From assembly GCA_947165135.1 (NCBI GenBank), contig CAMUZE010000005.1:4101-68100 (forward strand): DNA of 64,000 nt, written 5' to 3'. The position numbers were made by a program, and so were the translations under genes. How positions within the stretch are numbered: the first letter of the stretch is position 1; each line of letters opens with the position of its first letter. Shown here one piece after another: positions 5,368-24,354 of this stretch. Source of the stretch: an uncultured Clostridia bacterium. Its GTDB lineage: Bacteria > Bacillota_I > Bacilli_A > RF39 > UBA660. Under the pieces are notes generated by a model that saw only the letters and a program-made list of their open reading frames with translations, was not told the origin of the DNA and did not search any database.

Positions 5368-7044
5368 ATGAAGAAAAATATTATTTTAACAATATATGGC
5401 TCAACCCTTATTTATGATTTTAGAGAGTTAAATGGGGAAGAGAAAAAATTAGTTAATAAAAATGTTATTTCTAATAACACTCTTTTTTATACAATAAATT
5501 ATTTTAAAAAGAACTTGGATAATATAATATCAATTTTAGTTAACAATAATAATTACTATGATAGTGTAATTGTTAAGAAATTAGTGACATTTAAATATGT
5601 TGCCTATATAATGATGAGATTAAGAATACAATACTTAAAATTAGATTTTGCTTCAACTTTAGCACTAGATGATTATGAATTGTTTAGAGAAGTAGAAACA
5701 TTAAAACAAATAGATTGCTATTATATGCCAAATTTTATAGAGAAAAAGTTCGAAGAAAAAAATGTAATAGTTAATTTGTATAATTACAATAAAGTATCAG
5801 ACAGATTTATGTTACAACAAGATTCTTTAGATTATGAAACATTATATTATAGAAAAGTACTAGATATAAAAGAGGATTATCCTGGATTATTAGAAGATAT
5901 TAAAGAGTTTTTAAGAATTAATTATAATTTAAAAACTATAAATATTTATGTTTTTTCAAAGGAATTAATCTCTAATATAATAGATTTAGTTAAAAATGAT
6001 GAAGCTAGAGATGTAATAGTTTTCTTACATCAAAAAGATGATAGAGGAGGTTTTATAACTAGTAATTTTGACTGGTTAAAGAAACTTAATAAAACATGTA
6101 GAAATGAATATAAATGTGAATTTCGAATTGTTTATTCAAATTCATTCATTAAAAACAATTTATTTAAACAATTAACATTTAATAATTTAAAACTAATTAC
6201 AAGTTTATGTATATATATTAGTGTCGTTTCACTAATTATTATTAAATCATATGAATATATTGATAAAATTAATATTGATAAATTAAATGTCGATATCATA
6301 AATAGTACGTACGCTGCAAATAATAATAAAGAATTAGAACAATTAGAAGAAAGTAATTCTAATATTGAAAATGATATAATAGCTGATATTGAAGAGGAAA
6401 TTGCAGCAAACAAGGAAAAAAAGGTTACTAAAACTAGAGAAGAAATAATTGAAGATATGAAAAAGAAATATAAATTTGAAAAAGTCTTCGAAAATCTTAA
6501 AAAGATTAATAATGAAACAGTTGGGTATTTAGTTATTAATAATACAGAGATATCTTATCCAGTAGTTCAGCATTCAGATAATAATTATTATTTAAAACAT
6601 GATTTTTATAAAAAAAGCAAAAATGTTGGATGGATATTCATGGATTACAGAAATGATCCAAAAGATTTTGATGATAATACAATCATTTATGGACACTATT
6701 CTAGTGGATATGGAATTATGTTTGGAACACTTAAGAATATATTGACAACTAGTTGGAGAAGTAATAAAAACAATATGATTTTTACATTTGATACTCCAGA
6801 AGGAACAAAGAGATTTAAAATATTTGCAGGCTATAAAGTTGATTATACAACAGATTATTTAGTTACAAGTTTTGGAAATGAAAAAGATTTTAATAAATTT
6901 GTTGAAATGATAAGAGGAAGAAGTAATTTTACCACTGATGATGAGATAAATTATGGAGATAAAATTTTAACATTGTCAACATGTGCTGGTGGAGGAAACA
7001 GGAGACTAGTAATTCATGCAGTTTTATTAAAGGAGGAAGAATGA
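5368..7044 (+). CDS. Class B sortase catalytic domain fused to a ~275-aa N-terminal domain and a TM/coiled-coil linker
   Basis: The C-terminal ~185 aa carry sortase B hallmarks: NETVGYLVINNTEISYPVVQHSDNNYYLKHDF, IIYGH (His), LTLSTC (Cys) and NRRLVIHA (Arg). A TM segment lies near LITSLCIYISVVSLIIII, followed by an acidic coiled-coil linker. The N-terminal domain has no recognisable motif. Confidence 0.8.
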   Translation: MKKNIILTIYGSTLIYDFRELNGEEKKLVNKNVISNNTLFYTINYFKKNLDNIISILVNNNNYYDSVIVKKLVTFKYVAYIMMRLRIQYLKLDFASTLALDDYELFREVETLKQIDCYYMPNFIEKKFEEKNVIVNLYNYNKVSDRFMLQQDSLDYETLYYRKVLDIKEDYPGLLEDIKEFLRINYNLKTINIYVFSKELISNIIDLVKNDEARDVIVFLHQKDDRGGFITSNFDWLKKLNKTCRNEYKCEFRIVYSNSFIKNNLFKQLTFNNLKLITSLCIYISVVSLIIIKSYEYIDKINIDKLNVDIINSTYAANNNKELEQLEESNSNIENDIIADIEEEIAANKEKKVTKTREEIIEDMKKKYKFEKVFENLKKINNETVGYLVINNTEISYPVVQHSDNNYYLKHDFYKKSKNVGWIFMDYRNDPKDFDDNTIIYGHYSSGYGIMFGTLKNILTTSWRSNKNNMIFTFDTPEGTKRFKIFAGYKVDYTTDYLVTSFGNEKDFNKFVEMIRGRSNFTTDDEINYGDKILTLSTCAGGGNRRLVIHAVLLKEEE

Positions 7045-7679
7045 AGAGGGTATTAGCGATTTTGGCATTGCTTTTTCCAATGTTTATTAAAGCAGCCACG
7101 TGTGATTATAGCAAATTAAATGAGTATAACAAATTATCATCGAATGTTGATTATGAAGTGACAAGAGATAATAACTCAAATAGATATAAAATAACAATTA
7201 TGAATTTATATAATAATATGTATGTAAAATATAAAGGAGTTGCTTATACTTCTAATTCCAATAACGAAGCAGTTATAAATGGTATTGATGAAGGGGAAAA
7301 TTTAAGTATAATGTTATATGCTCCTTTATCCGATTGTGATCCATACTTAAAAACAATTAATGTTTCAACTCAGTACTATAATAGAATGTATAACGATAGT
7401 AGATGTATTAAATACAGAACTATATTGAATATATGTAAGTATGAATATTTATCATATAAAGCTACAGATTCTTTACTATCTTCTGCAATTAAGAATTATG
7501 AAAACTCATATAAAGAACCAGAAGAGGTAATAGAAGAAATAAAAGAAAAAACATTTTTAGAGAGTCTTGAAGACTTTATGATAAGCTGGGGCGTACAAAT
7601 CATATTGGTATTATTATCAAGTATAGTAACAATATCTATTTTCAAAGTTAAATATAGAAAAGTAAAACATGGAATTTAA
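7041..7679 (+). CDS. Secreted/tail-anchored 4-Cys protein, paralog 0 of the cassette family (212 aa)
   Basis: ATG at 7041 overlaps the sortase stop (ATGA) and follows AGGAGG. Signal peptide MKRVLAILALLFPMFIKA, four Cys (ATC, SDC, SRC..NIC), and a C-terminal TM plus basic tail (KVKYRKVKHGI). The track start at 6981 is an out-of-context extension. Confidence 0.7.
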   Translation: MKRVLAILALLFPMFIKAATCDYSKLNEYNKLSSNVDYEVTRDNNSNRYKITIMNLYNNMYVKYKGVAYTSNSNNEAVINGIDEGENLSIMLYAPLSDCDPYLKTINVSTQYYNRMYNDSRCIKYRTILNICKYEYLSYKATDSLLSSAIKNYENSYKEPEEVIEEIKEKTFLESLEDFMISWGVQIILVLLSSIVTISIFKVKYRKVKHGI

Positions 7680-7721
7680 TATTATTAATTCCGTGTTTTA
7701 ATATACTTTTTTTTATTATTT

Positions 7722-7730
7722 TGTTATAAT
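7722..7730 (+). promoter_or_regulatory. Extended -10 promoter (TGtTATAAT) of cassette 1
   Basis: TG at 7722-7723 and TATAAT at 7725-7730. The leader caatatgaaagtagg resembles the cassette 2 leader. Confidence 0.55.
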
Positions 7731-7751
7731 CAATATGAAAGTAGGATTATT

Positions 7752-8441
7752 ATGAAAAAAATAATAGCAATAATTTTTATGTTAATTATTAGTTTATCTT
7801 TCACAAAAGTAAAAGCATTATGTAATGATCTTGAAATAAATGATTTGGCAGAAAGATTCAATGCTATGTATATTGAACTTGACAATGGTGATATTGTTTT
7901 TAATGATTCGTCTCGCGTTGCTTATAGCAATGATTATTCATATGTCGTTTTTCTTTATCCATATTCAGAAAAATTAAAAGTTATTGTAACAGATTCTATT
8001 ACAAATAATAAGAGAGAAGTAAAAAAAGATAAAATCTTAGAAGCATTCTCTATACCATCATATATACACTATGAAAATAAAAAATATGATATAGAATTAT
8101 ATGGGGTAGATAATTCAGTGTGTAAAGGTGAGCTTTTAAAAACATTCAGTTTTGAAGTTCCAAAATTCAATGAGTATAGTATGTATGATCATTGTAAAAA
8201 TAACAAAGATGAAGATATTTGTAAAATGATGAATAATACAAGTGATATTAAACTAGAAGATTATGAAAAAATAGTAGAGAAAAGTAATGAAGATAATAAA
8301 ATAAAAAATATGTCTTTATTAGAACGATTAATATACTTTTCAAAAAAATATTGTCTATATGCTATAATTCCAATATTATTAATTTCAATATATTATACTA
8401 TCAAGATAAGTAAGTACAAAAAGAAGGTGGAAAACCAATAA
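7752..8441 (+). CDS. Secreted/tail-anchored 4-Cys protein, cassette 1 (229 aa)
   Basis: Signal peptide, conserved LNDLAE+FNA, PYS..LKV.V.DS, FNEYSMY..C.NNKDEDIC.MM, and a C-terminal TM plus KYKKKV tail. Roughly half the residues match 12838..13527 by eye. Confidence 0.8.
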   Translation: MKKIIAIIFMLIISLSFTKVKALCNDLEINDLAERFNAMYIELDNGDIVFNDSSRVAYSNDYSYVVFLYPYSEKLKVIVTDSITNNKREVKKDKILEAFSIPSYIHYENKKYDIELYGVDNSVCKGELLKTFSFEVPKFNEYSMYDHCKNNKDEDICKMMNNTSDIKLEDYEKIVEKSNEDNKIKNMSLLERLIYFSKKYCLYAIIPILLISIYYTIKISKYKKKVENQ

Positions 8442-11400
8442 TGAAAAGAAGGATAATATTATCATTAGCATTGTTTATTATTATTTTATTTCCAAATGTA
8501 TCATCAGCTTTGGAGAAAAAAACATACTCTCAAATATTGCAAGAAACGATTGATTTACAAAACGGAGAAGAAATTGGCCAAACTACTGAAACATGTATGG
8601 AATCCGATGATTCCGGTAAATATTATACTGCAAAGTGGAATGAAAATCTTGGTGATAAGGGAAGAGAACTTATTGGTGCTGTGTGGGCATGTAGACGTAA
8701 AGTGATATCTGTAGATACTAATCCTATTAAATATTCATATACTAGCACAAACAAAAACACAGCTGAAAGTAATGTAAAAAAAGATGTAGATGATAAAAAT
8801 GCTCAATATAAAATACCATCTTGCTGTAATTGGAAAGGAGATCCCAAAAAAGGTTATAGCTGTAGCGACAGTTCAGCGTGTAATCCTACAGTTTGTAGCA
8901 CTGTAACATGTACCTCAACAACATCATCTTCTGGTGGCGGAAGTGGAGGAAGTGGAGGAAGCGGAGGTGGCGGAGGTGGACGCGTCGTTATAAGAGTAGT
9001 TAGCCAGGCTCAAAAAATAATAACACCTATACCTATAAGAGAATTTACAACTTATTATAGCATTAAAGAGAGAATGAACTGTATTCCAGTTGATGGAGCC
9101 CTAGAAGAAATATGTGTTGCAGGTGATCCACCCGTAGGTGATGATGATTCTGGTGGAAATGGTGGTGGTGACTCTGGTAGTGGTTCTGGTGGTTCAACAA
9201 CCACTTATTGGACTTGTGAAGCAACTTGTCCAAATAGAATAGTAACTTTATCTGATTCAGAGTGTGATGAAGTTAAAGGTGGTCTGGATATAACTACTCC
9301 ACTATATGATATGGATATTGATGGTACCAAGTATGATGGTGATCCTATATATTGTCTACAGCCAGGGGCTAATGGACCTACAGCTGATGGACTTAAATAT
9401 ATTTTGGATACACAGTTAGATGTGGGTAGATGTCAAGACCAATATGTAGATAAAAATGATCAAAATGCAATTCAATGTGGACTTGCCCAAATATTGTATT
9501 TTGCTCATAATCATACAGTTAATAGTAAAGGTGAAGATGTTTGGACTCGTAAACCTGAATATACTGATGGAACAATCACACTAGCTTTAAGGCTTTGGAT
9601 GGCTGCTTATGCTAAAACTCCAAATGGTACTCCAACGTATCCATCTCAAATAACTGATCCTACATATACATACACAGATTCAGAAGGAATAGAAAATCCT
9701 GATGATTACGGAACATATCAAGCATTTAATGCCTCTTCTCCATTAGCTTGGGTACCTAGTGAAGATTATTATGATAAAACTGCTCAAAAAATAAAAAATG
9801 GTAAGAAATATGACACAAAAAATTCGCAAATATCTGAAACTAATAAAGATATTATATTTTGTGCGGACACTGAAAAAAGTGGAGAATGTGTAATAGATAA
9901 AGCTATTAAATTATTTCATGAAACCGAGAAAGTTAGTAAAGAAAACTTTTTAGGTGGGACAAATTTTAATAGAGAGGTACCTATTGTACAATATGAAGTT
10001 GATACTGGTATTTTTGAAGTAAAATTTGATAATAGAGATACAATTAGCAAGATAAAAGAAAATTGTGAAGATGTTAATGATCCTGAATGTCAAATAGAAG
10101 TAAGACTATTTTATGGTGATGAAGATGTAACTGACAAGAAAATAGATGGAGAAAATGTATTTAAATTTGAAAATATTAGTGATGGAATTCCATTCTGTGA
10201 TAAGAATTCATGTGTTGCTAAAATAATTAGAACAAAAGAATTCTGTATCGGTGGTGGATATGAAGAACTTAAGCTTGTCATAATATTTAAAAATTGGACA
10301 AGAAATTATGGATATGTTAGGTTATATACCGCTGCTAAGTCAGATCCAGAAAAGTATCAAAAAATGGTTTCATTTGGAATTAAACAAGAACAGTGTGAAT
10401 CTGAAAGTAGTGAATATAGGAATGGTAGAGTTGAAAAGCCAATCAAAATACCTTGTAATTGTACTCCAAATTCTTGTGATGATTTAAGTGCAACAGAAAG
10501 CCCTAGTAGTACAACTACATGTTTATCAAAGAAGACAATTAAAGATGCTAATATGAATTGTATTGTAAATTCATGTCCTCTTGATATTAATAATGAATTT
10601 GTTGTTACATCTAAGTATGGACTTAATCCACTTGTTTGTACAGTATATGAAAGAGATGAGAATGAACTATACTTGCCAGGAAAAACGACGGTATATTCTG
10701 GAATGCAATTCAGTTATGATTTGGCTAATGAATTAAAATCAAGTTTAAAATTAGATACCACTCATAAAATCACTGCGGTTGCAATGCAGAAAAAACAAAT
10801 AACATCTAAAATTAATTATGAATATTGGGAAAGAGAATACATAAGAAAACAAAACCTACTTTATTATTCATATTTAATGGGTTATAGTAATGAATATAAA
10901 AATGCGTTAATAACAGAAATAAATGATTGGATAAATGATTTAAATAATTGTAATTTTGTAAGTTCTGGAAAACAGAGCGATGCTATTCACAAGATAAATG
11001 TTGAAATATCTAACAAAGGAGATTGCAAAAATGATTCTTGTTCTAAAGTAAGTGTAAGATATGATGATTCTAATTATGGAATTGACAATCAATTAGCTGT
11101 ATCTACTGCGTTTAATAATGCAGAGATTAAAGACAGAGATGGAAGAAGCTATAGAAAATATTATAATATTACAAACAAAGGATTTGAAACAAGCCGCTCA
11201 GATGATAGTTCTATTCCATTAAATATGTATTATTGCACAAATTCGTCAAGAATCAATTGCTATGAATATGAAAATAAAAATACTGCTGTAGAAATAGTAA
11301 TGGCTAGTACTTCTAGTGGAAAAATAAAGAGTACAGCTAAATTCAAAAGGTATACGAGTTTGAGTGATTCAGAAGCTCAAGCAGGATTTACATATATAAG

Positions 11401-12337
11401 TGATGATACACTACGTAAGTATAATTGCAGCGGAAGCAATTGTTCTTATTCTGCATTAGATATTCCACAAAATGATTATGTAACAATAATTTATAACGTA
11501 GAGCATGATTATTATAATGATAAGAATTATAAAGCAGAAGCGTATACGGGCGTCGCTGTAGAAGAGGCACTAACAAGTGAAGAGCAAAAGGCAATAGCTG
11601 ACGGTTCTGCTAAATATGTTCCTCTAGATAAATACGTATATCCAATATCAGTTAATAGTAAAACTGGTGAATATCCAGTGTACTTCACTTTCAGTAATAT
11701 TAAAAACAGATATAGAAAAAGCTCAAACGGGACAACAATTATCGATGGGGATAAATATAGTAATAGTTGTTTTTACAAAGTATATAACATAACAACATCT
11801 TATGATTGTGATGTTATGGATGAAAATGGAAAAATGGATTTATCGAAGTGTCAGGATACTAAATATAAAGTAGTTAAAGGTGTGCCAGAAATAGATGAAA
11901 GTAAAGTACTTTGGGAGACAACTGATGATGGGACACAATATGGATTTATTTTCAGAACTGTTGCACTAGATGATTTATTTCCTAATTCTAAAGTAACTCA
12001 AAATGGTATTAGTTCTCGTGCATCAAGTATAAATTGGAGCGACAAAAAAAATGTAATAGAGGAAATTGAAAATGGTGCTGATACAATATTTAGTGATTCT
12101 GAAAAACTAGAATATAGTTATACTTTAACTCCACAAGGAATAAAGGAAATTAAAGAATATAATGATAATTCTTTAGATTCTGGTGGATATTTAAACTCAA
12201 CATTAATTAATTGTAAAATTGATAATGATGAAACTGGATTAAAAAAATTTAAAAATTGTAAGAGTACATTCTTAGAAGATATTAGAAATAAAAAATTCCC
12301 AGGTGTAGAAACAAACAAGGATGATGTTTTACAATGA
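8441..12337 (+). CDS. Giant secreted Cys-rich protein, cassette 1 (1298 aa), putative pilus-associated adhesin
   Basis: Start overlaps the upstream stop (TAATG). Sec signal peptide MKRRIILSLALFIIILFPNVSSA, two Gly/Ser linkers, many Cys, and no C-terminal TM or sorting motif. Colinear homology to 13524..16988. Confidence 0.85.
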   Translation: MKRRIILSLALFIIILFPNVSSALEKKTYSQILQETIDLQNGEEIGQTTETCMESDDSGKYYTAKWNENLGDKGRELIGAVWACRRKVISVDTNPIKYSYTSTNKNTAESNVKKDVDDKNAQYKIPSCCNWKGDPKKGYSCSDSSACNPTVCSTVTCTSTTSSSGGGSGGSGGSGGGGGGRVVIRVVSQAQKIITPIPIREFTTYYSIKERMNCIPVDGALEEICVAGDPPVGDDDSGGNGGGDSGSGSGGSTTTYWTCEATCPNRIVTLSDSECDEVKGGLDITTPLYDMDIDGTKYDGDPIYCLQPGANGPTADGLKYILDTQLDVGRCQDQYVDKNDQNAIQCGLAQILYFAHNHTVNSKGEDVWTRKPEYTDGTITLALRLWMAAYAKTPNGTPTYPSQITDPTYTYTDSEGIENPDDYGTYQAFNASSPLAWVPSEDYYDKTAQKIKNGKKYDTKNSQISETNKDIIFCADTEKSGECVIDKAIKLFHETEKVSKENFLGGTNFNREVPIVQYEVDTGIFEVKFDNRDTISKIKENCEDVNDPECQIEVRLFYGDEDVTDKKIDGENVFKFENISDGIPFCDKNSCVAKIIRTKEFCIGGGYEELKLVIIFKNWTRNYGYVRLYTAAKSDPEKYQKMVSFGIKQEQCESESSEYRNGRVEKPIKIPCNCTPNSCDDLSATESPSSTTTCLSKKTIKDANMNCIVNSCPLDINNEFVVTSKYGLNPLVCTVYERDENELYLPGKTTVYSGMQFSYDLANELKSSLKLDTTHKITAVAMQKKQITSKINYEYWEREYIRKQNLLYYSYLMGYSNEYKNALITEINDWINDLNNCNFVSSGKQSDAIHKINVEISNKGDCKNDSCSKVSVRYDDSNYGIDNQLAVSTAFNNAEIKDRDGRSYRKYYNITNKGFETSRSDDSSIPLNMYYCTNSSRINCYEYENKNTAVEIVMASTSSGKIKSTAKFKRYTSLSDSEAQAGFTYISDDTLRKYNCSGSNCSYSALDIPQNDYVTIIYNVEHDYYNDKNYKAEAYTGVAVEEALTSEEQKAIADGSAKYVPLDKYVYPISVNSKTGEYPVYFTFSNIKNRYRKSSNGTTIIDGDKYSNSCFYKVYNITTSYDCDVMDENGKMDLSKCQDTKYKVVKGVPEIDESKVLWETTDDGTQYGFIFRTVALDDLFPNSKVTQNGISSRASSINWSDKKNVIEEIENGADTIFSDSEKLEYSYTLTPQGIKEIKEYNDNSLDSGGYLNSTLINCKIDNDETGLKKFKNCKSTFLEDIRNKKFPGVETNKDDVLQ
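8924..8980 (+). repeat. Low-complexity GGN/AGY triplet run encoding SSSGGGSGGSGGSGGGGGG
   Basis: Imperfect gga-agt-gga/ggt-ggc reiteration, locally much more GC-rich than its surroundings. A second Gly/Ser run lies at about 9139..9205. Confidence 0.8.
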
Positions 12338-12516
12338 AACAAGCATTCTGGGCATATGCAGTAGTAGCATTTGGAGTAGTAATAGTAGTAGTAATGCTAT
12401 TTATACAAAGAATGACAATAACAACAGAAGAGAACTATTATTTAGAAAAAGAAATATTAGAGTCCTCCATGATAGACGCAGTAGATTATGGAACATATAA
12501 AAAACAGGAAAAATAG
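12334..12516 (+). CDS. 60-aa single-TM ORF (probable N-terminal half of a split ~138-aa gene), cassette 1
   Basis: ATGA overlap with the giant ORF. Reads MKQAFWAYAVVAFGVVIVVVMLF (TM). It terminates just after an A6 tract, and the -1 frame is open from 12501 into the next ORF. Confidence 0.6.
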   Translation: MKQAFWAYAVVAFGVVIVVVMLFIQRMTITTEENYYLEKEILESSMIDAVDYGTYKKQEK

Positions 12517-12518
12517 TA

Positions 12519-12752
12519 ATGTCAGAGCAAAAATTTGTAGAAGTATTTATAAGAAGATTTGCAGAAAGTGTAACAAATAATAAAACGTATCAATTAAACT
12601 TCTATGACATAAAAGAAGAACCACCAAAAGCTACTGTAAGGATAAGAACTGCAGCAGGATCAACAAATATAAATTCAGAATCATTTGATGTAAATTTAGA
12701 TACAACATTAAGTGGAATATTAGAAACCATTTATGGAACAAAAAGTAATTAA
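12519..12752 (+). CDS. 77-aa ORF (probable C-terminal half of the split gene), cassette 1
   Basis: ATG lies 2 nt after the upstream stop, with a weak AGGAAA 9 nt upstream. The product is soluble and beta-rich, and the ORF is followed by a strong terminator. Confidence 0.6.
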   Translation: MSEQKFVEVFIRRFAESVTNNKTYQLNFYDIKEEPPKATVRIRTAAGSTNINSESFDVNLDTTLSGILETIYGTKSN

Positions 12753-12785
12753 AAGTTTAGATTGATTTCTAAACTTTTTAATTTT
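12751..12785 (+). terminator. Rho-independent terminator of cassette 1
   Basis: 11-bp stem aaaagtttaga / tctaaactttt with a 6-nt loop and a T-rich tail. Confidence 0.8.
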
Positions 12786-12806
12786 ATGTACTTTATTTAT
12801 ATAATG

Positions 12807-12815
12807 TGATATAAT
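12807..12815 (+). promoter_or_regulatory. Extended -10 promoter (TGaTATAAT) of cassette 2
   Basis: TG at 12807-12808 and TATAAT at 12810-12815. The leader caaaattgaaagtagg is homologous to the cassette 1 leader. Confidence 0.55.
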
Positions 12816-12837
12816 CAAAATTGAAAGTAGGTGTCAC

Positions 12838-13527
12838 ATGAAAAAAATAAAAACATTATTTTTTGTATTATCACTTTTGATTTTTATGCCAAAATTATTT
12901 GCGGTATGTGATGATGCTGATTTAAATGATTTAGCAGAAAAATTTAATGCTGGATATATTGAAGATAGTGAACAAAAAATAAAACTTGAAGATGGGAGTT
13001 ATAAAGTATATAAAAAGGAATATGCTTATTTAATTGTATTTACTCCATATTCAAAAGATTTGAAAGTAGTGGTGAATGATTCAATTTTAAAAGAGAATCA
13101 AGAAGCAACTTATAGTGAAAGAAGAGGGACATATGTTATAGGATCTGATATTCATTATAAAGAGAAAGTATATACCGTTAATGTATATGGAAATGAAAAG
13201 TCTGCTTGTCCTAATCAATTATTGAAAACTTTAAGTTTTACAATACCACCTTTTAATGAATATAGTATGTACACATATTGTGAAAACAATAAAGACGAAG
13301 ATATATGTACTATGATGAAAGACACAAGCGATGTTACAATGAGTGAGTATAAAGAAATTGTTGCTGATAATATTGAAAATAAAAAGATAGAAAAAATGAA
13401 TTTTTTTGAAAAGGTACTATATTATATTTCAAAATATTGGATTTTTGTAGCAGTACCTGTATTATTGATTTCGACATATTATATTGTTACAATTATAGTA
13501 TATAAAAAGAAGGTGAACAAACGATGA
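12838..13527 (+). CDS. Secreted/tail-anchored 4-Cys protein, cassette 2 (229 aa)
   Basis: Paralog of 7752..8441 with the same length, the same Cys pattern (AVC, SAC, YC.NNKDEDIC), and a C-terminal TM plus YKKKVNKR tail. Confidence 0.8.
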   Translation: MKKIKTLFFVLSLLIFMPKLFAVCDDADLNDLAEKFNAGYIEDSEQKIKLEDGSYKVYKKEYAYLIVFTPYSKDLKVVVNDSILKENQEATYSERRGTYVIGSDIHYKEKVYTVNVYGNEKSACPNQLLKTLSFTIPPFNEYSMYTYCENNKDEDICTMMKDTSDVTMSEYKEIVADNIENKKIEKMNFFEKVLYYISKYWIFVAVPVLLISTYYIVTIIVYKKKVNKR

Positions 13528-16500
13528 AAAAGAAAGTATTATTTTTACTACTACTATTAGTTTTATTATTTGGATACAAAACGTTTGTTTTTGCTGATGA
13601 AACAGAATATACTACAGCAGTTTGTACTGATGATGAAAGCGGTAAAGTACACATAAGATGGGACAAACAGAAAGAACATGTTGGTGCTGTATATGTATGT
13701 TATTATCCTGTTGTATCAGCATTTGAAACAGTAACAGGTGAATTTGATACTGAAGCTGAGGCTGAAGCATACGCTCATGAGATACAAGGTGGATATACAA
13801 TACCTCATTGCTGTCATACAACTGATGTAAAAGAAACTGGATGTTCTGGTGCTGTTTGTAAGGAACCAGAATGTAAAGTTGACCCTATCACTAGAACATA
13901 TAGGCCAAGTTTGGGTGGTGCATCTATACTTGCAGGTGGAAGTGTAACTTTAAGTGTATCTAATATGCCTCCAAATTGTAGTGTTAGTTGGAGTTCTAAT
14001 GCTCCAGGTGGAACCTTTAGTTCAAGTACTGTTGGAACATATACAGTAACCGCATCATTATCATGTGGGCCAGTATTAAGTGCAACAGTTACAGTAGCAG
14101 ATCCATTATCAGGTGCAAATACTGAAGCAGCAATGAAGAATTATTCTACATCAAATAAAATAAAAGCAGTTGATTCTGTGAGTAGTTCTTCTGGTACTGT
14201 AACAGTAATAACTGGATATTCTGTAAATTGTGAGGTACCTCATGTAACTTATGACAAAACAAAATGCTATCCTGGAGATAAAGAAATAATATCAATTAGT
14301 TATGAAATAAATTTAAAAGATGACAAATATGAAGGAGATTCTGTATATTGTTTACAACCCGGTGCAACTGGGCCAGGACCTGATAGTACAGGTCTTCCAT
14401 ATATAGAAGATATGAATTTTGATATTTCTGTATGTCAGGATCAATATACTAACAAGAATGATAAGAATGCTGTACAATGTGGACTTGCACAACTACTTTA
14501 TCAAACTTATAATTGTGATAGAACAACAGGAAAATGCACACCAAAAGGAGAATATTCAAATGGAGTTATAACACTTGCTTTGAGACTTTGGATGGCTGCA
14601 TATGGAAAAGATACGTATTCTTTGGGTACAACATCTGAACTTGAAGACAATCCATTATTAGATTGGATACCTAGAGAAGATTATTATCAAGTCACTGCAG
14701 ACCTTATTAAGAACGGATGCGCTAAAACAGGTAAAAAATGTTATGATACAAGCTATGATGCACTTCAAAAAGATAAAGTATTAGGTAGAATTGGATGTAC
14801 AAAATCTGAAAGTGCTAAAAAGAGTACTGATCCAAGTTTTAAGTGTGATATAGATAAAGCCATAGAACTATTCCATAATACAGAAAATGTGAAAAAGCAA
14901 GATTTTTTAGGCGGAATTAACTTCGATAAAAAAGTTCCTGTATTCAAATATGAAGAAGATCAAGGAATTATTAAAGTTGAATTTGATGAAATTGAAGATG
15001 TTGAAGAAATAAATGTAGATTGTAAACCTGGAGAACCCGGATGTACATTAAAAATTAGATTTTATTATGGGGATATAGATGTAACCGATTTGGTTGAATT
15101 AGGCGAATGGTCATGCGAGAAGAATACATGTACTGCTAAAGTAATTGGTACAAAATTCTGTTTAAAATATAAGACACCAGGTGTAACAGTTTTAAGAGCT
15201 GTACTTGAAATATCAAACTGGAAAAGAAATAATGGTTATGTAAGATTCTATACTCATGCAACATCACCTAATAAATATCAAAAGATGATATCATTTGGTC
15301 TTCTATTAGAAGAATGTGAAGAAGCACAGGAGGCACAAAAGAAGTTATATATTCCGGGTGAGGTTAGAATAGATTGTCCTTGTGATGATAAGTGTGATGA
15401 TTTAAGTTCGAAAGAAACTGATAATAAAGAATGTAGTGGATATAGTAAAATTACTGATGCAAATATGAACTGTATTGTTAATGCTTGCTTCAAGATAGAT
15501 ACATATAAATATAATGTTTCATCAAAATATATTGTTAACCCACTAGTTTGTACATTATACGAAAGACAAGAAAATGAATTCTATCTACCAGAAAAAACAA
15601 GCGTATATGCAGGTATGCAATTTAGTTATGACCTTGGGGCAACACTAGGAATAAAGACAATATCTAGTAACATGGATCCTAGTCCAAAACTAACAAGTAT
15701 TGTTAAACAAAGAAAACAAGTTACATCTGAGATTAATTATTCGTTCTGGAAATCAGAATATGATAGAAAATTAAATAGACTATCTTATGCTTATGAACAA
15801 GGTTATAGTGATGAATATAAGAAACAATTAAAAGCTGAAATTAACGAATGGTTATTTGACCTTAAGAATTGTAATTTATATACTCCAGTTCAAACAGGAG
15901 CTAGTGATACACGTTCACATGCTATTAATAATATTTTAAGCAGTGCAAATTGTAGTGGAGAAAAATGTTTAAATATGGACATTACTTATGGTGATGTAAA
16001 ATATGGTAAGGATGTTGATCCTCTAGTTGATATTAGTGAGGTTTTAACTAGCGATGGATATGAGCTATATTATTGTAAAAACAATGGAAACGAAGATAAA
16101 TGTTATAGATTTGATAAAAATAATGCAGTTGAAGTTAAGGAAAATAATAAAGTTGAAACTGTAGATTATTATAGTGGAAAAGTAAAAATCCCAACTAATG
16201 ATTATGCTACTATAGTAATTGATATTGAACATGATTTCTATCAAGCAACTAAATATAAAACAAGAGCATATACTGGTGTTGTTGAAAAAGGTGAAATAAC
16301 AAAAGGAGAAACTAAAAAATATACACCATTAAGCGATTATTCTTACCCTGTATCTGGTAGTAGCAAAACAGGCGAATATCCTGTTAATATCAAAATATCA
16401 AATATAGGTAATTTAGGTAGAAAATCAACGAACTATGCATATGCATGTAAATATCAAGTTTACAATAGAACAACTGCTTATGATTGTGCTGCATTAGATA

Positions 16501-16988
16501 AAAATGGAAATATCGACCTTTCTAAATGTCAAGATGCAAATTATAAAGTAGAAAATGGTATTCCAAAAATCGATGATAGTCAAATTAGTTGGAGTTCAAC
16601 CGATAGTAAAAACAATGGATTTGTATTTAAAAATGTTGATTTAAGTAATTTATTCCCTAATGGTTTAGATAGTTTAAATTCAGATGTTAACTGGACAGGT
16701 AAAGAAGAAGATATCAAAGAAATTGAAAATACAGCTGATACAATATTTACTGATGAGTCTTACTTACAATATAGTTACACAATAACTCCACAAGGAATGA
16801 AAGAAATTAAAGATTACAACACTAATAATTTAAGTGATGGAGGATATTTAAATTCAACATTATTAGATTGTAGTGTTATAAATGATGATACTGGATTACA
16901 ACAATTTAGAAATTGTAAGAGTACATTCTTAGAGGAAATTAGAAGTTATGCTGGAGTAACTGTTAATAAGGAAGGTGGTTCAAAATGA
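13524..16988 (+). CDS. Giant secreted Cys-rich protein, cassette 2 (1154 aa), putative pilus-associated adhesin
   Basis: ATGA overlap with the upstream gene and signal peptide MKKKVLFLLLLLVLLFGYKTFVFA. An Ig-like beta-rich segment (GGSVTLSVS..TYTVTASL..TVTVADP) replaces the Gly/Ser linkers of copy 1. It shares the conserved YCLQPGA.GP core and C-terminal domain with copy 1. Confidence 0.85.
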   Translation: MKKKVLFLLLLLVLLFGYKTFVFADETEYTTAVCTDDESGKVHIRWDKQKEHVGAVYVCYYPVVSAFETVTGEFDTEAEAEAYAHEIQGGYTIPHCCHTTDVKETGCSGAVCKEPECKVDPITRTYRPSLGGASILAGGSVTLSVSNMPPNCSVSWSSNAPGGTFSSSTVGTYTVTASLSCGPVLSATVTVADPLSGANTEAAMKNYSTSNKIKAVDSVSSSSGTVTVITGYSVNCEVPHVTYDKTKCYPGDKEIISISYEINLKDDKYEGDSVYCLQPGATGPGPDSTGLPYIEDMNFDISVCQDQYTNKNDKNAVQCGLAQLLYQTYNCDRTTGKCTPKGEYSNGVITLALRLWMAAYGKDTYSLGTTSELEDNPLLDWIPREDYYQVTADLIKNGCAKTGKKCYDTSYDALQKDKVLGRIGCTKSESAKKSTDPSFKCDIDKAIELFHNTENVKKQDFLGGINFDKKVPVFKYEEDQGIIKVEFDEIEDVEEINVDCKPGEPGCTLKIRFYYGDIDVTDLVELGEWSCEKNTCTAKVIGTKFCLKYKTPGVTVLRAVLEISNWKRNNGYVRFYTHATSPNKYQKMISFGLLLEECEEAQEAQKKLYIPGEVRIDCPCDDKCDDLSSKETDNKECSGYSKITDANMNCIVNACFKIDTYKYNVSSKYIVNPLVCTLYERQENEFYLPEKTSVYAGMQFSYDLGATLGIKTISSNMDPSPKLTSIVKQRKQVTSEINYSFWKSEYDRKLNRLSYAYEQGYSDEYKKQLKAEINEWLFDLKNCNLYTPVQTGASDTRSHAINNILSSANCSGEKCLNMDITYGDVKYGKDVDPLVDISEVLTSDGYELYYCKNNGNEDKCYRFDKNNAVEVKENNKVETVDYYSGKVKIPTNDYATIVIDIEHDFYQATKYKTRAYTGVVEKGEITKGETKKYTPLSDYSYPVSGSSKTGEYPVNIKISNIGNLGRKSTNYAYACKYQVYNRTTAYDCAALDKNGNIDLSKCQDANYKVENGIPKIDDSQISWSSTDSKNNGFVFKNVDLSNLFPNGLDSLNSDVNWTGKEEDIKEIENTADTIFTDESYLQYSYTITPQGMKEIKDYNTNNLSDGGYLNSTLLDCSVINDDTGLQQFRNCKSTFLEEIRSYAGVTVNKEGGSK

Positions 16989-17167
16989 AACAAGCATTCT
17001 GGGCATATGCAGTAGTAGCATTTGGAGTAGTAATAGTAGTAGTAATGCTATTTATACAAAGAATGACAATAACAACAGAAGAGAACTATTATTTAGAAAA
17101 AGAAATATTAGAGTCCTCCATGATAGACGCAGTAGATTATGGAACATATAAAAAACAGGAAAAATAG
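16985..17167 (+). CDS. 60-aa single-TM ORF, cassette 2 (identical to 12334..12516)
   Basis: Identical nucleotide and protein sequence, and the same ATGA coupling to the giant ORF. Confidence 0.6.
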   Translation: MKQAFWAYAVVAFGVVIVVVMLFIQRMTITTEENYYLEKEILESSMIDAVDYGTYKKQEK

Positions 17168-17169
17168 TA

Positions 17170-17403
17170 ATGTCAGAGCAAAAATTTGTAGAAGTATTTA
17201 TAAGAAGATTTGCAGAAAGTGTAACAAATAATAAAACGTATCAATTAAACTTCTATGACATAAAAGAAGAACCACCAAAAGCTACTGTAAGGATAAGAAC
17301 TGCAGCAGGATCAACAAATATAAATTCAGAATCATTTGATGTAAATTTAGATACAACATTAAGTGGAATATTAGAAACCATTTATGGAACAAAAAGTAAT
17401 TAA
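17170..17403 (+). CDS. 77-aa ORF, cassette 2 (identical to 12519..12752)
   Basis: Identical nucleotide and protein sequence. Confidence 0.6.
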   Translation: MSEQKFVEVFIRRFAESVTNNKTYQLNFYDIKEEPPKATVRIRTAAGSTNINSESFDVNLDTTLSGILETIYGTKSN

Positions 17404-17436
17404 AAGTTTAGATTGATTTCTAAACTTTTTAATTTA
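17402..17436 (+). terminator. Rho-independent terminator of cassette 2
   Basis: Same hairpin as 12751..12785. Confidence 0.8.
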
Positions 17437-17442
17437 TATATG

Positions 17443-17472
17443 TTGAATTGTATATTAATTTTGTGTTATACT
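17443..17472 (+). promoter_or_regulatory. Sigma-A-type promoter of the Tad core operon
   Basis: -35 TTGAAT (17443-17448), 18-nt spacer containing a TG, and -10 TATACT (17467-17472). Confidence 0.55.
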
Positions 17473-17509
17473 TAAGTAGAATAGAAATAATAGGATGGTG
17501 GAAAAAAGA

Positions 17510-18340
17510 ATGAGTAACATTTTATATGGAATCAAAAGATTCATAAAGAACAAAAATACTGTGACAATTATAGCAATAGTGGCTTCACTTGTTATAATTT
17601 ATTTTGCGTATAATGCAAGAATTAAAAAGGCAACTGAGCCACAATTAGTACCATATGCTTTACAAGATTTAGCACCTAGAACATTGATAACATCTGAAAT
17701 GGTAGGGACAAGAAAAGTACCAGGAAGCGTAATAACTCCAAATGTTATTACAAGTAAAAATTCAATTATAGGAATGTATGTAAGTAATAAAGTTCAAATT
17801 CCAAAAGATAGTTTGTTCTATAGAAATACGTTGTTGACTTGGGATGAATTACCATCAAGTTTATATGAAAATATTCCTGAAGGTAATACAATTGTTGCAT
17901 TACCTGTGTCAAGTGAAACAACATATGGAAACTCTATATTTGAAGGAAACTATATAGATTTATATTATTCTGGTAGAGATACAGATGGAAAAATATTAGT
18001 TGGAAAATTTATTGAAAGTATTAAAGTATTAGCAGTAACTGATAGTGCATTTAATAATATATTTGAAAAGAGTTCTGATGTTGCGCAACCTGCATATTTA
18101 GTATTCTCTGTTCCAGAAGAAATGCACCTATTATTAAGAAAAGCTTTGTATTTAAATGGAAATATATATCCGGTGCCAAGAAATGCTGAGTATTCAAAAA
18201 ATCCTAAAAACACAAGAATTAGTAGTTCATATATTGAAAATTTAATATTAAATCAAACTGTTAATGTTACCTCAAAAGATTTGAGTGGAGTAAGTATTAA
18301 AGAAATTGAAAATAAACAAACTCAAGGAGGTGAACAATAA
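17510..18340 (+). CDS. CpaB/RcpC-like pilus assembly protein, paralog 1
   Basis: N-terminal TM, a SAF-like segment (LAPRTLITSEMVGTRKVPGSVI..IIGMYV..IPKDSLF), then GNTIVALPVSSETTYGNSIFEGNYIDLYY, typical of CpaB. The ATG at 17510 has a GGTGGA RBS. The track start at 17495 lacks one. Confidence 0.7.
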   Translation: MSNILYGIKRFIKNKNTVTIIAIVASLVIIYFAYNARIKKATEPQLVPYALQDLAPRTLITSEMVGTRKVPGSVITPNVITSKNSIIGMYVSNKVQIPKDSLFYRNTLLTWDELPSSLYENIPEGNTIVALPVSSETTYGNSIFEGNYIDLYYSGRDTDGKILVGKFIESIKVLAVTDSAFNNIFEKSSDVAQPAYLVFSVPEEMHLLLRKALYLNGNIYPVPRNAEYSKNPKNTRISSSYIENLILNQTVNVTSKDLSGVSIKEIENKQTQGGEQ

Positions 18341-19092
18341 TGTTAAAAAGAGTATTAGGAAATAAAGGACTTGTAACATTAATTGCAATGGTAGTATGTA
18401 TAGTTATTCTATTTTTTGCCTATAAGTATAGAGTTGATAGAGAAATAAAAGCAACATCTGTACCATATGCAATTGCCGATATTCCTGCAAGAACAGAAAT
18501 AACAGAAGAATTAGTTGGAACTGTTAAAGTTGCATCTTCAATGGTTACAAGTACAGTAATTACAAATAAAAATAATGTTATTGGAAAATATGTTAATTAT
18601 AATACATACATTCCAGCGGGAAGCTTGTTTTATTCACCTTCAGTTGTGACGTGGGATTATATGCCAGATTCAGCATGGAGAAACATGTATAATGATTATA
18701 CAATCGTTTCACTTCCAGTTAGTAGTACAACTACTTATGGTAACTCAATTTTTCCAGGAGATAAGATAGATTTATATTATCATACTACTGACAATGGGAA
18801 ATTAGTTTATGGCAAGTTAATCGAAGGTATTGAGGTTTTAGCTGTAAAAGATAGCGATGGAAGTCATATATTCAAGAAGAGTTCTGATCAAAGAGATGCA
18901 GCTGCATTAATTTTCTCAGTTCCAGAAGACTTACATATTTTATTAAGACAAGCAATTTATATTTCAGGAACAAGTAGTTTAGTTCCAGTGCCAAGAAATG
19001 CTAATTATAATCCAACTACTACAATAAGTAGCGAATATTTAAAATCATTAATTAAAAATCAAACAAAAGAAGTACCACTTGATAGTGAATAA
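18340..19092 (+). CDS. CpaB/RcpC-like pilus assembly protein, paralog 2
   Basis: Same architecture as paralog 1 (IPARTEITEELVGTVKV.., YTIVSLPVSSTTTYGNSIFPGDKIDLYY). AGGAGGTGA RBS and a TAATG overlap with the upstream gene. Confidence 0.7.
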   Translation: MLKRVLGNKGLVTLIAMVVCIVILFFAYKYRVDREIKATSVPYAIADIPARTEITEELVGTVKVASSMVTSTVITNKNNVIGKYVNYNTYIPAGSLFYSPSVVTWDYMPDSAWRNMYNDYTIVSLPVSSTTTYGNSIFPGDKIDLYYHTTDNGKLVYGKLIEGIEVLAVKDSDGSHIFKKSSDQRDAAALIFSVPEDLHILLRQAIYISGTSSLVPVPRNANYNPTTTISSEYLKSLIKNQTKEVPLDSE

Positions 19093-19132
19093 ATAATATA
19101 AAGAGAAAAAAGATAATAGAAAGGGTAGAATA

Positions 19133-20272
19133 ATGGATGATGTTGTTTTTTCGCAAATAGATTTTGGTGTGCTTGTTCCATTACTTCAAGATGATGATGT
19201 AACAGATATTTCATATTCGAATGGTGGCCAGTTATGGATAAAAACATTAACTCAAGGTGTAAAACCATGTCATGTTGATGGGCTAAACAATGAAGTTATG
19301 GAAAAATTAGCATTTCAATGCTCTAACGTCATGGGAAAAACATTTAATATGGCGCATCCATTATTAGATGCCGAGAGTGCTGAGCTGCGTCTTAATTTCG
19401 TACATGAATCTATCGCAACTAATGGAATTGCTGTACTTATTAGGAAAACGCCAGCAAAAATAAGATTAAAAAAAGAGAAACTAATTGAAGAAGATTATGT
19501 ATCTGTTAACTTACATGACTTTTTAATAACTTGTGTTACTGGACACTGCAATATACTTGTTAGTGGAGAAACTGGTTCAGGTAAAACAGAGCTGATTAAA
19601 TACTTAGCAAGTCATATTAAGGAAGATGAAAAAATAATTACTATTGAAGATACATTAGAGCTTCATTTAGATAAAATTTATCCAACAAGAGATATTGTGG
19701 CAATGAAAACAAATAATATTGCTTCATATTCTGATGTTCTTGTTGCGTGTATGCGTCAGAACCCAAGATGGATTTTACTATCAGAGGTCCGTTCTGCAGA
19801 AGCTGTTATGGCTGTACGTAACTCAATCTCATCAGGACACAATATTTTGTCTACAATACACTCAGATAAAGCATCAAGTATACCTATGCGTTTATATTCA
19901 CTTTTAGAAACAAGCCAAGATATTGATCAATTTGTAAAAGGTATGCATAGATATATACAATTGGGAATACATGTTAAAGGTTTCTTTTCAAAGAAATATA
20001 ACAGATTCCAAAGAGAAATAACGCAAGTAGTTGAGTTTTATGTAGATGATGTTGAAAATATAGCAAAAGTTAATGTATTATATGCGAGGGATTTAATGGG
20101 AAATGAAACATATAATAATCCAACTTCACACCTGATAGATTATTTGGCATCTCAAGGAGTTCAAATGAGAGAAGATCCATTTATTCCTAAGGATTCAGGA
20201 TTACAGACTTCAACTGAAAGTAATCCTGTTGAAAATAGTCAACCCAGCAGTGTAGAAGTTTTAGATATATAA
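19133..20272 (+). CDS. tadA: CpaF/TadA-type secretion ATPase (VirB11/T2SSE superfamily)
   Basis: Walker A GETGSGKTE, Asp box ITIEDTLEL, Walker B region RQNPRWILLSEVR, and His box GHNILSTIH. It sits next to two T2SSF-type membrane proteins. Confidence 0.85.
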   Translation: MDDVVFSQIDFGVLVPLLQDDDVTDISYSNGGQLWIKTLTQGVKPCHVDGLNNEVMEKLAFQCSNVMGKTFNMAHPLLDAESAELRLNFVHESIATNGIAVLIRKTPAKIRLKKEKLIEEDYVSVNLHDFLITCVTGHCNILVSGETGSGKTELIKYLASHIKEDEKIITIEDTLELHLDKIYPTRDIVAMKTNNIASYSDVLVACMRQNPRWILLSEVRSAEAVMAVRNSISSGHNILSTIHSDKASSIPMRLYSLLETSQDIDQFVKGMHRYIQLGIHVKGFFSKKYNRFQREITQVVEFYVDDVENIAKVNVLYARDLMGNETYNNPTSHLIDYLASQGVQMREDPFIPKDSGLQTSTESNPVENSQPSSVEVLDI

Positions 20273-20284
20273 AGGAGGTAAAGT

Positions 20285-21184
20285 ATGTATATAGAAATAT
20301 TTGTAATAGCTGCAATTTTGATATTTGTATTCATATATAGAAAAAATAGCGGAAATAATTCTTATAAGTTTATTACTAAAAACCTCGATAGTGCATATGG
20401 TAAAATATCACCATATTCCTTCAAGGTCGTACGTGAAAAAGCAAAAGAATTAGGCCAAGAATACACCTCTAGACAATATGCTATACAAGTTGCAGTATTT
20501 GGAATAGCAGCTGCATTCATTTCATATTTATATTTTTATAGCATTATTTGGAGTATTGTGTATGCTGTAGCAACGATTGCTGTAATTCCATATTTAACTT
20601 ATATGAGATGTAAAAAAGCATATAGTGAATTTATATTTGAACAGATTCAAGTATATACTACAAACGTAATTATGGAATTTAATACTACTCAATCATTTGT
20701 TAAAGCATTAGAAGGTGTAAGAGATTCAGGAGTTTTAGAAGATCCAGTGCTATCTGATGTGAATGAGATGATAAGAATGTCTTATGAAAATGGGACTATA
20801 GATGAAGCAGTAAGATTTATGAATGAAAAATATGATTATTATGTAATCAAAAATATGCATCAACTATTTTTACAAATAACTAAAGAAGGTTCAAAAGATT
20901 CTGGAGAAGCATTAGAAGGAATGCTTCAAGACATAGATATGCTTGTTGAAAGTGTATATAGAGATAGAATTGATAGAACAACATTCTATAAACAATTCTG
21001 TACATTTGGTGTAGCACTTTACCTACTTGTATTAATGGTTCAATTATTGCTTGGGGAATCAAGCTATATGACACTACTTGATGAGTGGTATGTACAATTA
21101 TTACTTCATGGGGTAATATTAATAAATACATACTTCTTACTAACAGGTATCAAATATTACCATGAGGATGTGGGTGCTGAATAA
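20285..21184 (+). CDS. tadB: TadB-like platform protein (T2SSF family)
   Basis: N-terminal TM, a pair of central TMs, a cytoplasmic helical domain and C-terminal TMs. Its position directly after the ATPase supports the call. Confidence 0.65.
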   Translation: MYIEIFVIAAILIFVFIYRKNSGNNSYKFITKNLDSAYGKISPYSFKVVREKAKELGQEYTSRQYAIQVAVFGIAAAFISYLYFYSIIWSIVYAVATIAVIPYLTYMRCKKAYSEFIFEQIQVYTTNVIMEFNTTQSFVKALEGVRDSGVLEDPVLSDVNEMIRMSYENGTIDEAVRFMNEKYDYYVIKNMHQLFLQITKEGSKDSGEALEGMLQDIDMLVESVYRDRIDRTTFYKQFCTFGVALYLLVLMVQLLLGESSYMTLLDEWYVQLLLHGVILINTYFLLTGIKYYHEDVGAE

Positions 21185-21981
21185 TGGAAATATTTTTAGT
21201 AGGAATAATATTAATTTTCTTGTTTAATTACCTGGGAACATTTAATTTTAACAAGTTTGTTGATGATAATAAAGTAGTATTTGGAAAATTAAAAGAAGAT
21301 GATTATGATTTCTTAGTTATTTCTAAATATGGTGAAAAAGTTGATCCAAATGAAAGATATCAAAAGAGAGTAAAAACTGCTATAATTACATTCTTTATAG
21401 CATTTGTTATTGCACTAACAAGTATAAAGAGTATAAATATGGCAATTAAAATTGTTTTGGTTCTAGCAGCAACATATTTTATGTTTAAAGATGATTATAA
21501 TAAAGTTAAAAGATTTTATAAACAACATTTACATGAAATAAATCTAAAATTACCATATTATTTGAAGAGTTTAGAGATTTTAATTCAACATTATACAGTA
21601 CCAGTTGCAATTACAAGAAGTTTAGAATCTGCTCCTGAAATGTTTAAACCAGGGTTAAGAGATTTAATTTCAGCAATTGATGCAGGTGATTCAACAATTG
21701 AGCCATATATGGCATTTGCAAGACGTTATCCTGTTAGAGATTCAATGAGAATGATGAGACTTCTTTATAGACTTGGTCTTGGTAGCCAAGAAAGAAAACA
21801 AGATCAATTGATTGTATTCTCAAGAACAATCTCAACATTACAAAATAAATCAAGAGAAACAAAATATAAAGAACGTTTAGAAAAAATGGAAAAGAAAACT
21901 ATGACAATGCTTGTAGCAACAGGTGCAGGAGTTATGGTTATTCTAGTCCTTTCAATATTACAAATATTTATGGCAGTGTAA
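21184..21981 (+). CDS. tadC: TadC-like platform protein (T2SSF family)
   Basis: Same topology class as the TadB-like ORF, with a TAATG overlap. The helical domain contains PYYLKSLEILIQ..GLRDLISAIDAGDS.. Confidence 0.65.
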   Translation: MEIFLVGIILIFLFNYLGTFNFNKFVDDNKVVFGKLKEDDYDFLVISKYGEKVDPNERYQKRVKTAIITFFIAFVIALTSIKSINMAIKIVLVLAATYFMFKDDYNKVKRFYKQHLHEINLKLPYYLKSLEILIQHYTVPVAITRSLESAPEMFKPGLRDLISAIDAGDSTIEPYMAFARRYPVRDSMRMMRLLYRLGLGSQERKQDQLIVFSRTISTLQNKSRETKYKERLEKMEKKTMTMLVATGAGVMVILVLSILQIFMAV

Positions 21982-22010
21982 ATTAAGTTATAATTAATGT
22001 GTAAAACATA

Positions 22011-22040: not shown

Positions 22041-22074
22041 TTAATTAGATAATAAAGGAGGAATTAATTAAAAA

Positions 22075-22359: not shown

Positions 22360-22380
22360 AATATTTAGTAAAAATAAAAT

Positions 22381-24345: not shown

Positions 24346-24354
24346 TATTTTATT

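Follow-up and report, generated by a model that had tools for sequence, protein, structure and literature searches.

The window, a 64-kb stretch of contig CAMUZE010000005.1 from an uncultured bacterium that GTDB places in Bacilli_A, carries two gene cassettes arranged in tandem directly upstream of a Tad-like pilus operon. Each cassette has the same order: a promoter, a gene for a 229-amino-acid (aa) protein, a gene for a secreted protein of ~1200 aa (here called a giant open reading frame, ORF), a small gene of the DUF5411 family and a terminator. The DUF5411 gene and its terminator lie in a perfect direct repeat, which is the subject of this work. The main features of the cassettes are the following.

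7752..8441, forward strand: cassette 1 gene 1, a 229-aa protein that has a signal-like segment at its N-terminus and a membrane anchor at its C-terminus
8441..12337, forward strand: cassette 1 gene 2 (giant ORF 1), a 1298-aa Cys-rich secreted protein whose stop overlaps the DUF5411 start (ATGA)
12333..12784, forward strand: repeat copy 1, 452 nucleotides (nt), with the frameshifted DUF5411 gene and the terminator hairpin
12334..12752, forward strand: DUF5411 gene, copy 1, made of a 60-aa ORF (12334..12516) and a 77-aa ORF (12519..12752)
12751..12784, forward strand: terminator-like hairpin, copy 1, with an 11-bp AT-rich stem, a 6-nt loop and a T-rich tail; the duplicated unit ends here
12838..13527, forward strand: cassette 2 gene 1, the 229-aa paralog
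13524..16988, forward strand: cassette 2 gene 2 (giant ORF 2), a 1154-aa Cys-rich secreted protein whose stop overlaps the DUF5411 start
16984..17435, forward strand: repeat copy 2, with the DUF5411 gene at 16985..17403, an A6 run at 17150..17155 and the hairpin at 17402..17429

The perfect direct repeat described in an earlier note on this DNA was found again base for base: positions 12333..12784 and 16984..17435 are identical at 452 of 452 sites, with an offset of 4651 bp, and extension from inside the repeat gives exactly these limits. The repeat occurs twice in the window, with no third copy. Shuffling the window gave exact repeats of at most 17-19 nt, so a repeat of 452 nt is far beyond chance. 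Identity starts one base 5' of the ATG (12334 and 16985) and ends 6 nt past the 3' arm of the AT-rich hairpin. The flanks are clearly different, as had been reported; when compared at the same offset, matching is chance-like downstream and about 70-80% upstream. The arms of the hairpin (12751-12761 and 12768-12778) gave a centroid energy of -10.4 kcal/mol (z = -3.1 against shuffles), and the hairpin was not flagged by a simple terminator scan, which demands at least three G-C pairs. No RNA element from Rfam was found at E <= 1 within 7000..18000.

Both small ORFs of the repeat matched the DUF5411 profile (PF17424, cut-off 30 bits), the 60-aa ORF at profile positions 1-58 of 134 (66.2 bits) and the 77-aa ORF at positions 63-132 (81.0 bits), and no single ORF covering the full profile (about 134-145 aa) is present in the repeat. 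With one base restored in the run at 12499..12504, the gene encodes a protein of 139 aa that is colinear with intact homologs. When 5.8 billion proteins were searched with this restored sequence, 120 homologs were obtained, mostly full-length (about 135-170 aa), and the closest ones are single ORFs of 139-143 aa with 83-99% identity. One of them, P0001 (139 aa), differs from the restored protein solely by K56R/K57T. The methionine that would start the 77-aa ORF, Met63 of the restored protein, was invariant in 17 aligned sequences. Judging from these matches, a -1 frameshift has broken one DUF5411 gene into the 60-aa and the 77-aa ORF. The "60/77-aa module" of the earlier note thus has to be replaced by one gene split by a strain-specific frameshift, for which the relatives encode an intact protein of 139 aa.

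Identity within and divergence between genomes

Close relatives of the locus were drawn from ENA, NCBI and Logan, and none of them comes from JGI. Two metagenome scaffolds of one sister species, here S and X (98.5% identical to each other), are syntenic with window positions 2378..27418, colinear over 25 kb at 83.5% DNA identity, and likewise carry two cassettes. A further lineage, Z, is represented by short contigs from eight samples, and the window itself is designated W. The nearest genomes are metagenome-assembled genomes (MAGs) labelled uncultured Bacilli, "Tenericutes/Mollicutes", Erysipelotrichaceae or "Clostridium sp. CAG". Exact-protein look-ups for sister strains with the 77-aa, both 229-aa and the CpaB proteins returned no record.

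The two cassettes of the window are strongly diverged outside the repeat. The giant proteins share 46% aa identity and the 229-aa pair 44%; giant 1 and giant 2 are 69% and 76% identical to their positional orthologs in S and 44-46% identical to the other paralog, and the 229-aa protein of cassette 1 is 77% identical to its S ortholog. No other genes of the locus evolve as fast as the giant genes. At the DNA level, the window cassettes are 30-70% identical to each other; over the final 200 nt of the giant ORF the value climbs to about 81%, and in DUF5411 it is 100%. Because the flanks are orthologous by position and the giants are closer to their positional orthologs than to their paralogs, the cassette duplication is ancient and predates the divergence of the compared genomes.

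The DUF5411 genes follow a different pattern. S and X each encode the same intact DUF5411 protein twice, within perfect repeats that are 474 nt long in S and 485 nt in X. In the alignment of the six copies from W, S and X, the copies of each genome are identical (W1=W2, S1=S2, X1=X2), while W differs from S/X at 31-32 sites; one site is C,C in S and T,T in X, and the flanks group by position, not by genome. Over about 420 nt, pairwise differences are 0-3 within W, S/X and Z, whatever the position of the copy, and 29-39 between these lineages. The Z genes that precede the cassette 2 promoter and those that precede the cpaB promoter are 0-3 nt apart from each other and 34-39 nt from W or S/X. 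No position-specific variant was found among 19 gene copies. The copies are thus alike within genomes, diverged between them and set in flanks that are orthologous by position, which bears out the proposal of recent gene conversion within diverged paralogs.

Could purifying selection alone, acting on each copy separately, hold the copies identical? The DUF5411 protein is well conserved (95% identity between the window and S). However, the W and S genes differ by 23 synonymous and 5 non-synonymous codon changes, and no codon differs between the copies of any genome; since the changes between lineages are mostly synonymous, constraint alone cannot explain the complete lack of differences within genomes. 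The 32 nt of non-coding sequence 3' of the stop codon are identical as well. The pattern at synonymous sites thus refutes this explanation.

The same pattern was found further afield. The locus L060, whose DUF5411 is 49% identical to that of the window, has a perfect 467-nt repeat that covers just DUF5411, its giants being 45% identical, which points to an independent recurrence of homogenisation in a distant lineage. Taken together, the comparisons make it probable that the DUF5411 copies are kept identical by gene conversion, a case of concerted evolution inside old, diverged tandem cassettes.

Several points weigh against this interpretation. The DUF5411 copies are just 75-79% identical in the tandem cassettes of four other species (L009, L021, L022 and L067), so tandem cassettes do not always undergo conversion, and no conversion event was observed directly. 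All the sequences compared, and probably the window too, are metagenome assemblies, in which the graph passes twice through one node for any repeat, exact or nearly so, that exceeds the k-mer in length, and small differences between copies can be erased; a frameshift present in one copy alone could therefore also have been erased. With regard to the escaped copies, identity is bimodal, either about 100% or clearly lower, as a homology-dependent process predicts.

The assembly problem could go further: the copies may be similar, not identical, or one alone may be frameshifted, with identity imposed by graph collapse or by polishing with multi-mapped reads. Several fragmentary assemblies among the relatives break or end at the repeat, besides many short contigs; one contig (L005) spans from repeat to repeat (4779 nt), which shows that the repeat is unresolved to assemblers, and another contig described below (L076) is possibly a chimeric path through it. 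Such an artefact is nevertheless unlikely, given that identity within genomes recurs in independent assemblies of three lineages and in L060, and that none of the 19 gene copies carries a position-specific variant. Differences a few bases outside the tract were resolved by the assemblers (for instance a mismatch at -24 in S that is not found in X), and collapse could hide a few single-nucleotide polymorphisms but could not create 29-39 differences between lineages against 0-3 within them. That one copy is an assembly duplication, which the earlier note had named as a possible refutation, is unlikely too, as three further independent assemblies show both cassettes with unique flanks.

The limits of identity were compared among the relatives, as the earlier note had suggested, with a constant 3' limit in W, S, X and L060 and a shifting 5' limit as the outcome. 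Three putative promoters are relevant to the 3' side:

7722..7730, forward strand: putative extended -10 element of cassette 1, TGTTATAAT (consensus match only)
12807..12815, forward strand: putative extended -10 element of cassette 2, TGATATAAT, kept in S, X and the Z-lineage contigs
17443..17472, forward strand: putative promoter of the CpaB/Tad operon, TTGAAT - 18 nt - TATACT with TG before (consensus match only)

The 3' limit lies just past the gene or the terminator in these four genomes. Beyond it, copy 1 leads into the promoter of the next cassette and copy 2 into the cpaB promoter. The promoter regions 5' of cassettes 1 and 2 are mutually homologous, with TTGTTATAATCAATATGAAAGTAGG of cassette 1 aligning with TGTGATATAATCAAAATTGAAAGTAGG upstream of cassette 2 (pattern TGnTATAAT), and therefore define the end of the duplicated unit. 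As there is no homology beyond it, the 3' limit stays in place; contrary to what had been proposed, it is set by where the duplicated unit ends and not by the terminator as such.

On the 5' side, identity reaches -1 nt from the ATG in W, -23 in S, -34 in X and -48 in L060. In Z it extends to at least -150, and the giant ORFs before both positions are identical in their last 50 codons. The tail of giant ORF 1 in W (...KKFPGVETNKDDVLQ) is divergent, while all other copies read ...GVTVNK.... The earlier note placed the boundary exactly at the start codon, and for W the position is right; as the limit varies across lineages, this is a coincidence without special meaning.

A mechanism consistent with these limits would be the repeated overwriting of the DUF5411 segment, copy to copy, by non-reciprocal homologous recombination (gene conversion), so that each genome would have identical copies even as the genomes drift apart from one another. 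Purifying selection, by slowing its evolution, would keep DUF5411 similar enough to remain convertible, and conversion tracts would stop where the fast-diverging 3' end of the large gene offers too little identity, which would let the 5' limit float.

The frameshift in the DUF5411 gene

The disruption maps to a short A-rich site:

12497..12505, forward strand: site of the frameshift in copy 1, ATAAAAAAC; the A6 run occupies 12499..12504, and relatives have ATAGAACAAC

In the alignment the window reads TATAAAA-AACAGG against TATAGAACAACAGG in the relatives, that is, a G>A substitution and a lost C, and both copies are alike in the assembly. Among the aligned relatives the A6 run was found in the window only. 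The S and X alleles and that of contig L076 (ENA ERZ14209546 NODE_647050, 633 nt) have the in-frame AGAACAACA with no homopolymer, and the genes of the Z lineage are intact 420-nt ORFs. Over the repeat and its two flanks, L076 matches the window at every base save for the intact AGAACA at the frameshift site, and its sample also contains a contig 99.92% identical to the window over 3.8 kb. Because L076, from a sample with a near-identical strain, differs within the repeat just by the G>A change and the deleted C, the frameshift is taken as derived, and it would be either very recent or an error.

A homopolymer sequencing error was judged unlikely, the intact allele having no homopolymer at the site and the change being a substitution plus a deletion. 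In addition, the 25-kb syntenic stretch contains 80 A/T runs of at least 6 nt, and all of the 18 other genes keep the length of their S orthologs (18/18), which makes an error at this one run improbable. Programmed frameshifting or phase variation was also considered and rejected, as the tract is neither conserved nor length-variable among relatives.

Two features could be taken to favour a genuine two-gene module, or recoding through a programmed -1 frameshift or through slippage of transcription at the A6 run: an AGGA that resembles a Shine-Dalgarno sequence precedes the 77-aa ORF, about 7 nt 5' of the ATG for the invariant Met63, and the shift is -1 on an A-rich run. These readings are nonetheless very improbable, considering that the closest homologs are single ORFs, that most of the 120 matches are full-length and that the closest relatives are in frame and free of a homopolymer at this point. 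Moreover, the site T AAA AAA C does not correspond to the canonical X XXY YYZ heptamer, A6 is short for slippage, and the C-terminal half alone would be without a membrane or export segment. The repeat thus holds one disrupted gene, whose frameshift was either spread to both copies by conversion or imposed on both by the assembly consensus. Unless consensus-imposed, the strain-specific inactivating change would have spread by the same conversion process that keeps the copies identical.

The intact protein is a small bitopic membrane protein, recurrent in Tad/type-IV-pilus-like loci of Firmicutes and presumably with a role in the pilus system. Its AlphaFold model (mean pLDDT 79) has a long N-terminal helix with a hydrophobic segment, followed by a helix on a three-stranded sheet. 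A Foldseek search of the model against PDB gave no match at E <= 0.001, the DUF5411 profile gave chance matches only against PDB sequences, and no NCBIfam match was found.

Other forms of the gene were seen among the relatives. In L069 (9907..10332; CP091739.1, a complete-chromosome MAG) DUF5411 has two frameshifts, at least one of them at a T run; these resemble homopolymer miscalls and call for caution against reading every split DUF5411 as biology. In L021 (10001..11068 and 15019..16497) and L022 (10001..11083 and 15074..16540) DUF5411 forms the N-terminus of longer ORFs of 355-492 aa and is thus also found fused to C-terminal extensions; the list of homologs includes proteins of 190-240 aa. 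Another strain-specific disruption in the pilus locus was found in scaffold X (L004, 15952..16917), in which the ortholog of the 323-aa gene of the window (22945..23916), intact in strain S, is split into 159-aa and 146-aa ORFs.

The Tad-like operon and neighbouring genes

Downstream of the second repeat copy lies the pilus operon:

17495..24345, forward strand: Tad-like pilus operon, with two CpaB/RcpC-like proteins, a T2SSE/CpaF-type ATPase, two polytopic membrane proteins, small pilin-like proteins and others

The ATPase matched PF00437 (T2SSE) with 101.4 bits, and the two adjacent CpaB/RcpC-like genes scored 26.2 and 25.3 bits with PF16976, below its cut-off of 28.8. No matches to the TadB/TadC (T2SSF), Flp-type pilin or prepilin peptidase families were found in the operon, where position and size alone suggest such roles; the locus is therefore termed Tad-like and was not assigned to the Tad/Flp systems. 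The 299-aa, 265-aa, 94-aa and 162-aa proteins had no Pfam or NCBIfam match (E <= 0.1 / 0.01). With the exception of the small pilin-like proteins, the operon proteins are 93-97% identical to their S orthologs. The CpaB/RcpC-like tandem paralogs (17495..19092) are 52% identical to each other and 93-95% identical to the S orthologs, showing no homogenisation, unlike DUF5411.

In the cassettes, neither the 229-aa protein of cassette 1 nor the giant proteins matched a family in Pfam or NCBIfam. To call the giant ORFs adhesins, as the earlier note did, goes further than these searches allow; a distant homolog of giant ORF 2 (P0128) carries PF09479. Directly upstream of the cassettes, a 558-aa protein (5368..7044) has a class B sortase domain in its C-terminal third (NCBIfam TIGR03064, 149.6 bits against a cut-off of 153.75) and an uncharacterised N-terminal extension of about 340 aa; an LPXTG-like signal is not evident in the cassette proteins. 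It is followed by a gene at 6981..7679 (232 aa), probably starting at 7041 (7041..7679, 212 aa as in S), for a protein with a signal peptide and a C-terminal anchor. This protein is 29% identical to the 229-aa cassette proteins; it could be a remnant, or else belong to the cassette series as a third member that lacks a giant.

Elsewhere in the window, a minus-strand ORF (30335..32542) for a 735-aa secreted protein contains a 55-nt exact direct repeat (30342..30396 and 30444..30498, offset 102 nt), which encodes GDTSGDGNITILDLLQVQKHIKGAKKL twice at the C-terminal end of the protein and has the look of a dockerin-type calcium-binding pair. A megablast search of positions 7000..24000 against plasmid and phage collections gave no match, so there is no sign of a mobile element.

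Possible cassette deletion and relation to known systems

The earlier note predicted that recombination between the repeats could delete or amplify cassette 2. This holds in principle, and L076 corresponds to the predicted junction: aligned with window positions 12234..12784 and 17436..17514, it contains the 3' end of giant ORF 1 with the tail specific to W copy 1, an intact DUF5411 gene and the cpaB promoter flank specific to W copy 2. It may, however, be a chimeric assembly. The k-mer coverage of L076 is 1.7, compared with 2.85 for L085, a single-copy contig of the same sample and the one contig recovered by exact look-up of the window ATPase. A two-copy repeat should have a higher coverage than a single-copy contig, so the lower value hints at a real single-cassette strain, although a chimeric path is also plausible. 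When giant 2, or giant 1 joined to both 229-aa proteins, served as the protein query, no fragment of either cassette turned up from ERZ14209546.

A broader proposal is that the DUF5411-terminator block serves as a selected recombination handle, by which surface-protein cassettes would be reversibly deleted or amplified, or exchanged between strains, as a switching system for the giant proteins associated with the pilus. Cassette 2 lies between the direct repeats, species differ in how many cassettes they have (most loci have one, a few have two), L076 has the exact deletion junction at low coverage, and the genes that would be exchanged are the fastest-evolving of the locus. Yet deletion and amplification are open to any tandem duplication, selected for or not; two cassettes persist in several species whose DUF5411 copies are just 75-79% identical, and no sample shows both arrangements. 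The coverage argument for L076 rests on about a dozen reads, and the searches for cassette 2 fragments are uninformative. A selected handle is accordingly an unlikely explanation.

Comparable cases are known. In the outer-membrane adhesin paralogs babA/babB and homA/homB of Helicobacter pylori, a 3' segment clusters by strain and not by gene through intragenomic gene conversion, while the 5' and middle segments diverge and are a source of diversity (PMC2795765, which cites Pride & Blaser 2002 and Santoyo & Romero 2005). The cassettes described here share this segmental concerted evolution. They differ in that the homogenised block is a separate downstream gene with its terminator and not part of the variable gene, that the paralogs are tandem-adjacent and not dispersed, and that the host belongs to an uncultured, low-GC lineage of gut Bacilli for which no phenotype is known.

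In the classical bacterial examples, tufA/tufB and the ribosomal RNA operons, paralogs are closer to each other within a genome than to their orthologs in other genomes (PMC6053082; PMC8022953), and long-lasting cases were catalogued by Wang & Chen 2018. The DUF5411 copies resemble these in their similarity within genomes and in the recurrence of the pattern in several lineages. The classical cases, in contrast, concern core, highly expressed and usually whole genes, whereas DUF5411 is an accessory gene of a pilus locus amid genes diverged to about 45% identity, and conversion here has apparently carried a null allele.

The gene neighbourhood also has a known counterpart. Miller et al. 2022, the one paper found to mention DUF5411, described a predicted operon of the type IV pilus / T2SS-like kind in gut Clostridia with CpaF, PilC/GspF, DUF5411 as a recurrent component and an internalin-like protein (PMC9523054). 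The window locus similarly combines DUF5411 with a CpaF-type ATPase, polytopic platform-like proteins and a large surface protein. The operons of Miller et al. come from Roseburia, Ruminococcus and Eubacterium, and tandem cassette duplication or homogenisation is unreported there (PMC9523054); the present host belongs to a different class-level group, and its locus has a class B sortase-domain protein upstream. Finally, the arrangement of 452-nt repeats 4651 bp apart is like that of RecA-mediated deletion and amplification between direct repeats, with a predicted single-cassette product that matches L076, unlike demonstrated events of this kind in that L076 is possibly an assembly chimera.

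The locus is therefore a new example of a known process, clean but ordinary concerted evolution, and current understanding is not overturned. For the annotation of this genome, two small "genes" become one disrupted DUF5411 gene. For the lineage, the comparisons provide a comparatively supported case of segmental concerted evolution in uncultured gut bacteria, with conversion confined to a slowly evolving gene between the fastest-evolving surface-protein genes. If both physical copies are frameshifted, conversion may have copied a null allele into both paralogs, removing the redundancy given by the duplication. If the repeat did act as a recombination handle, these gut Bacilli would add, drop or exchange whole surface-protein cassettes before a shared Tad-like pilus machine, L076 would be a real single-cassette variant with an intact gene, and copying of a null or intact DUF5411 allele would switch both cassettes off or on together. 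In this uncharacterised Tad-like system DUF5411 stands out as the conserved gene that accompanies the variable giant proteins, and this offers a useful lead on its function.

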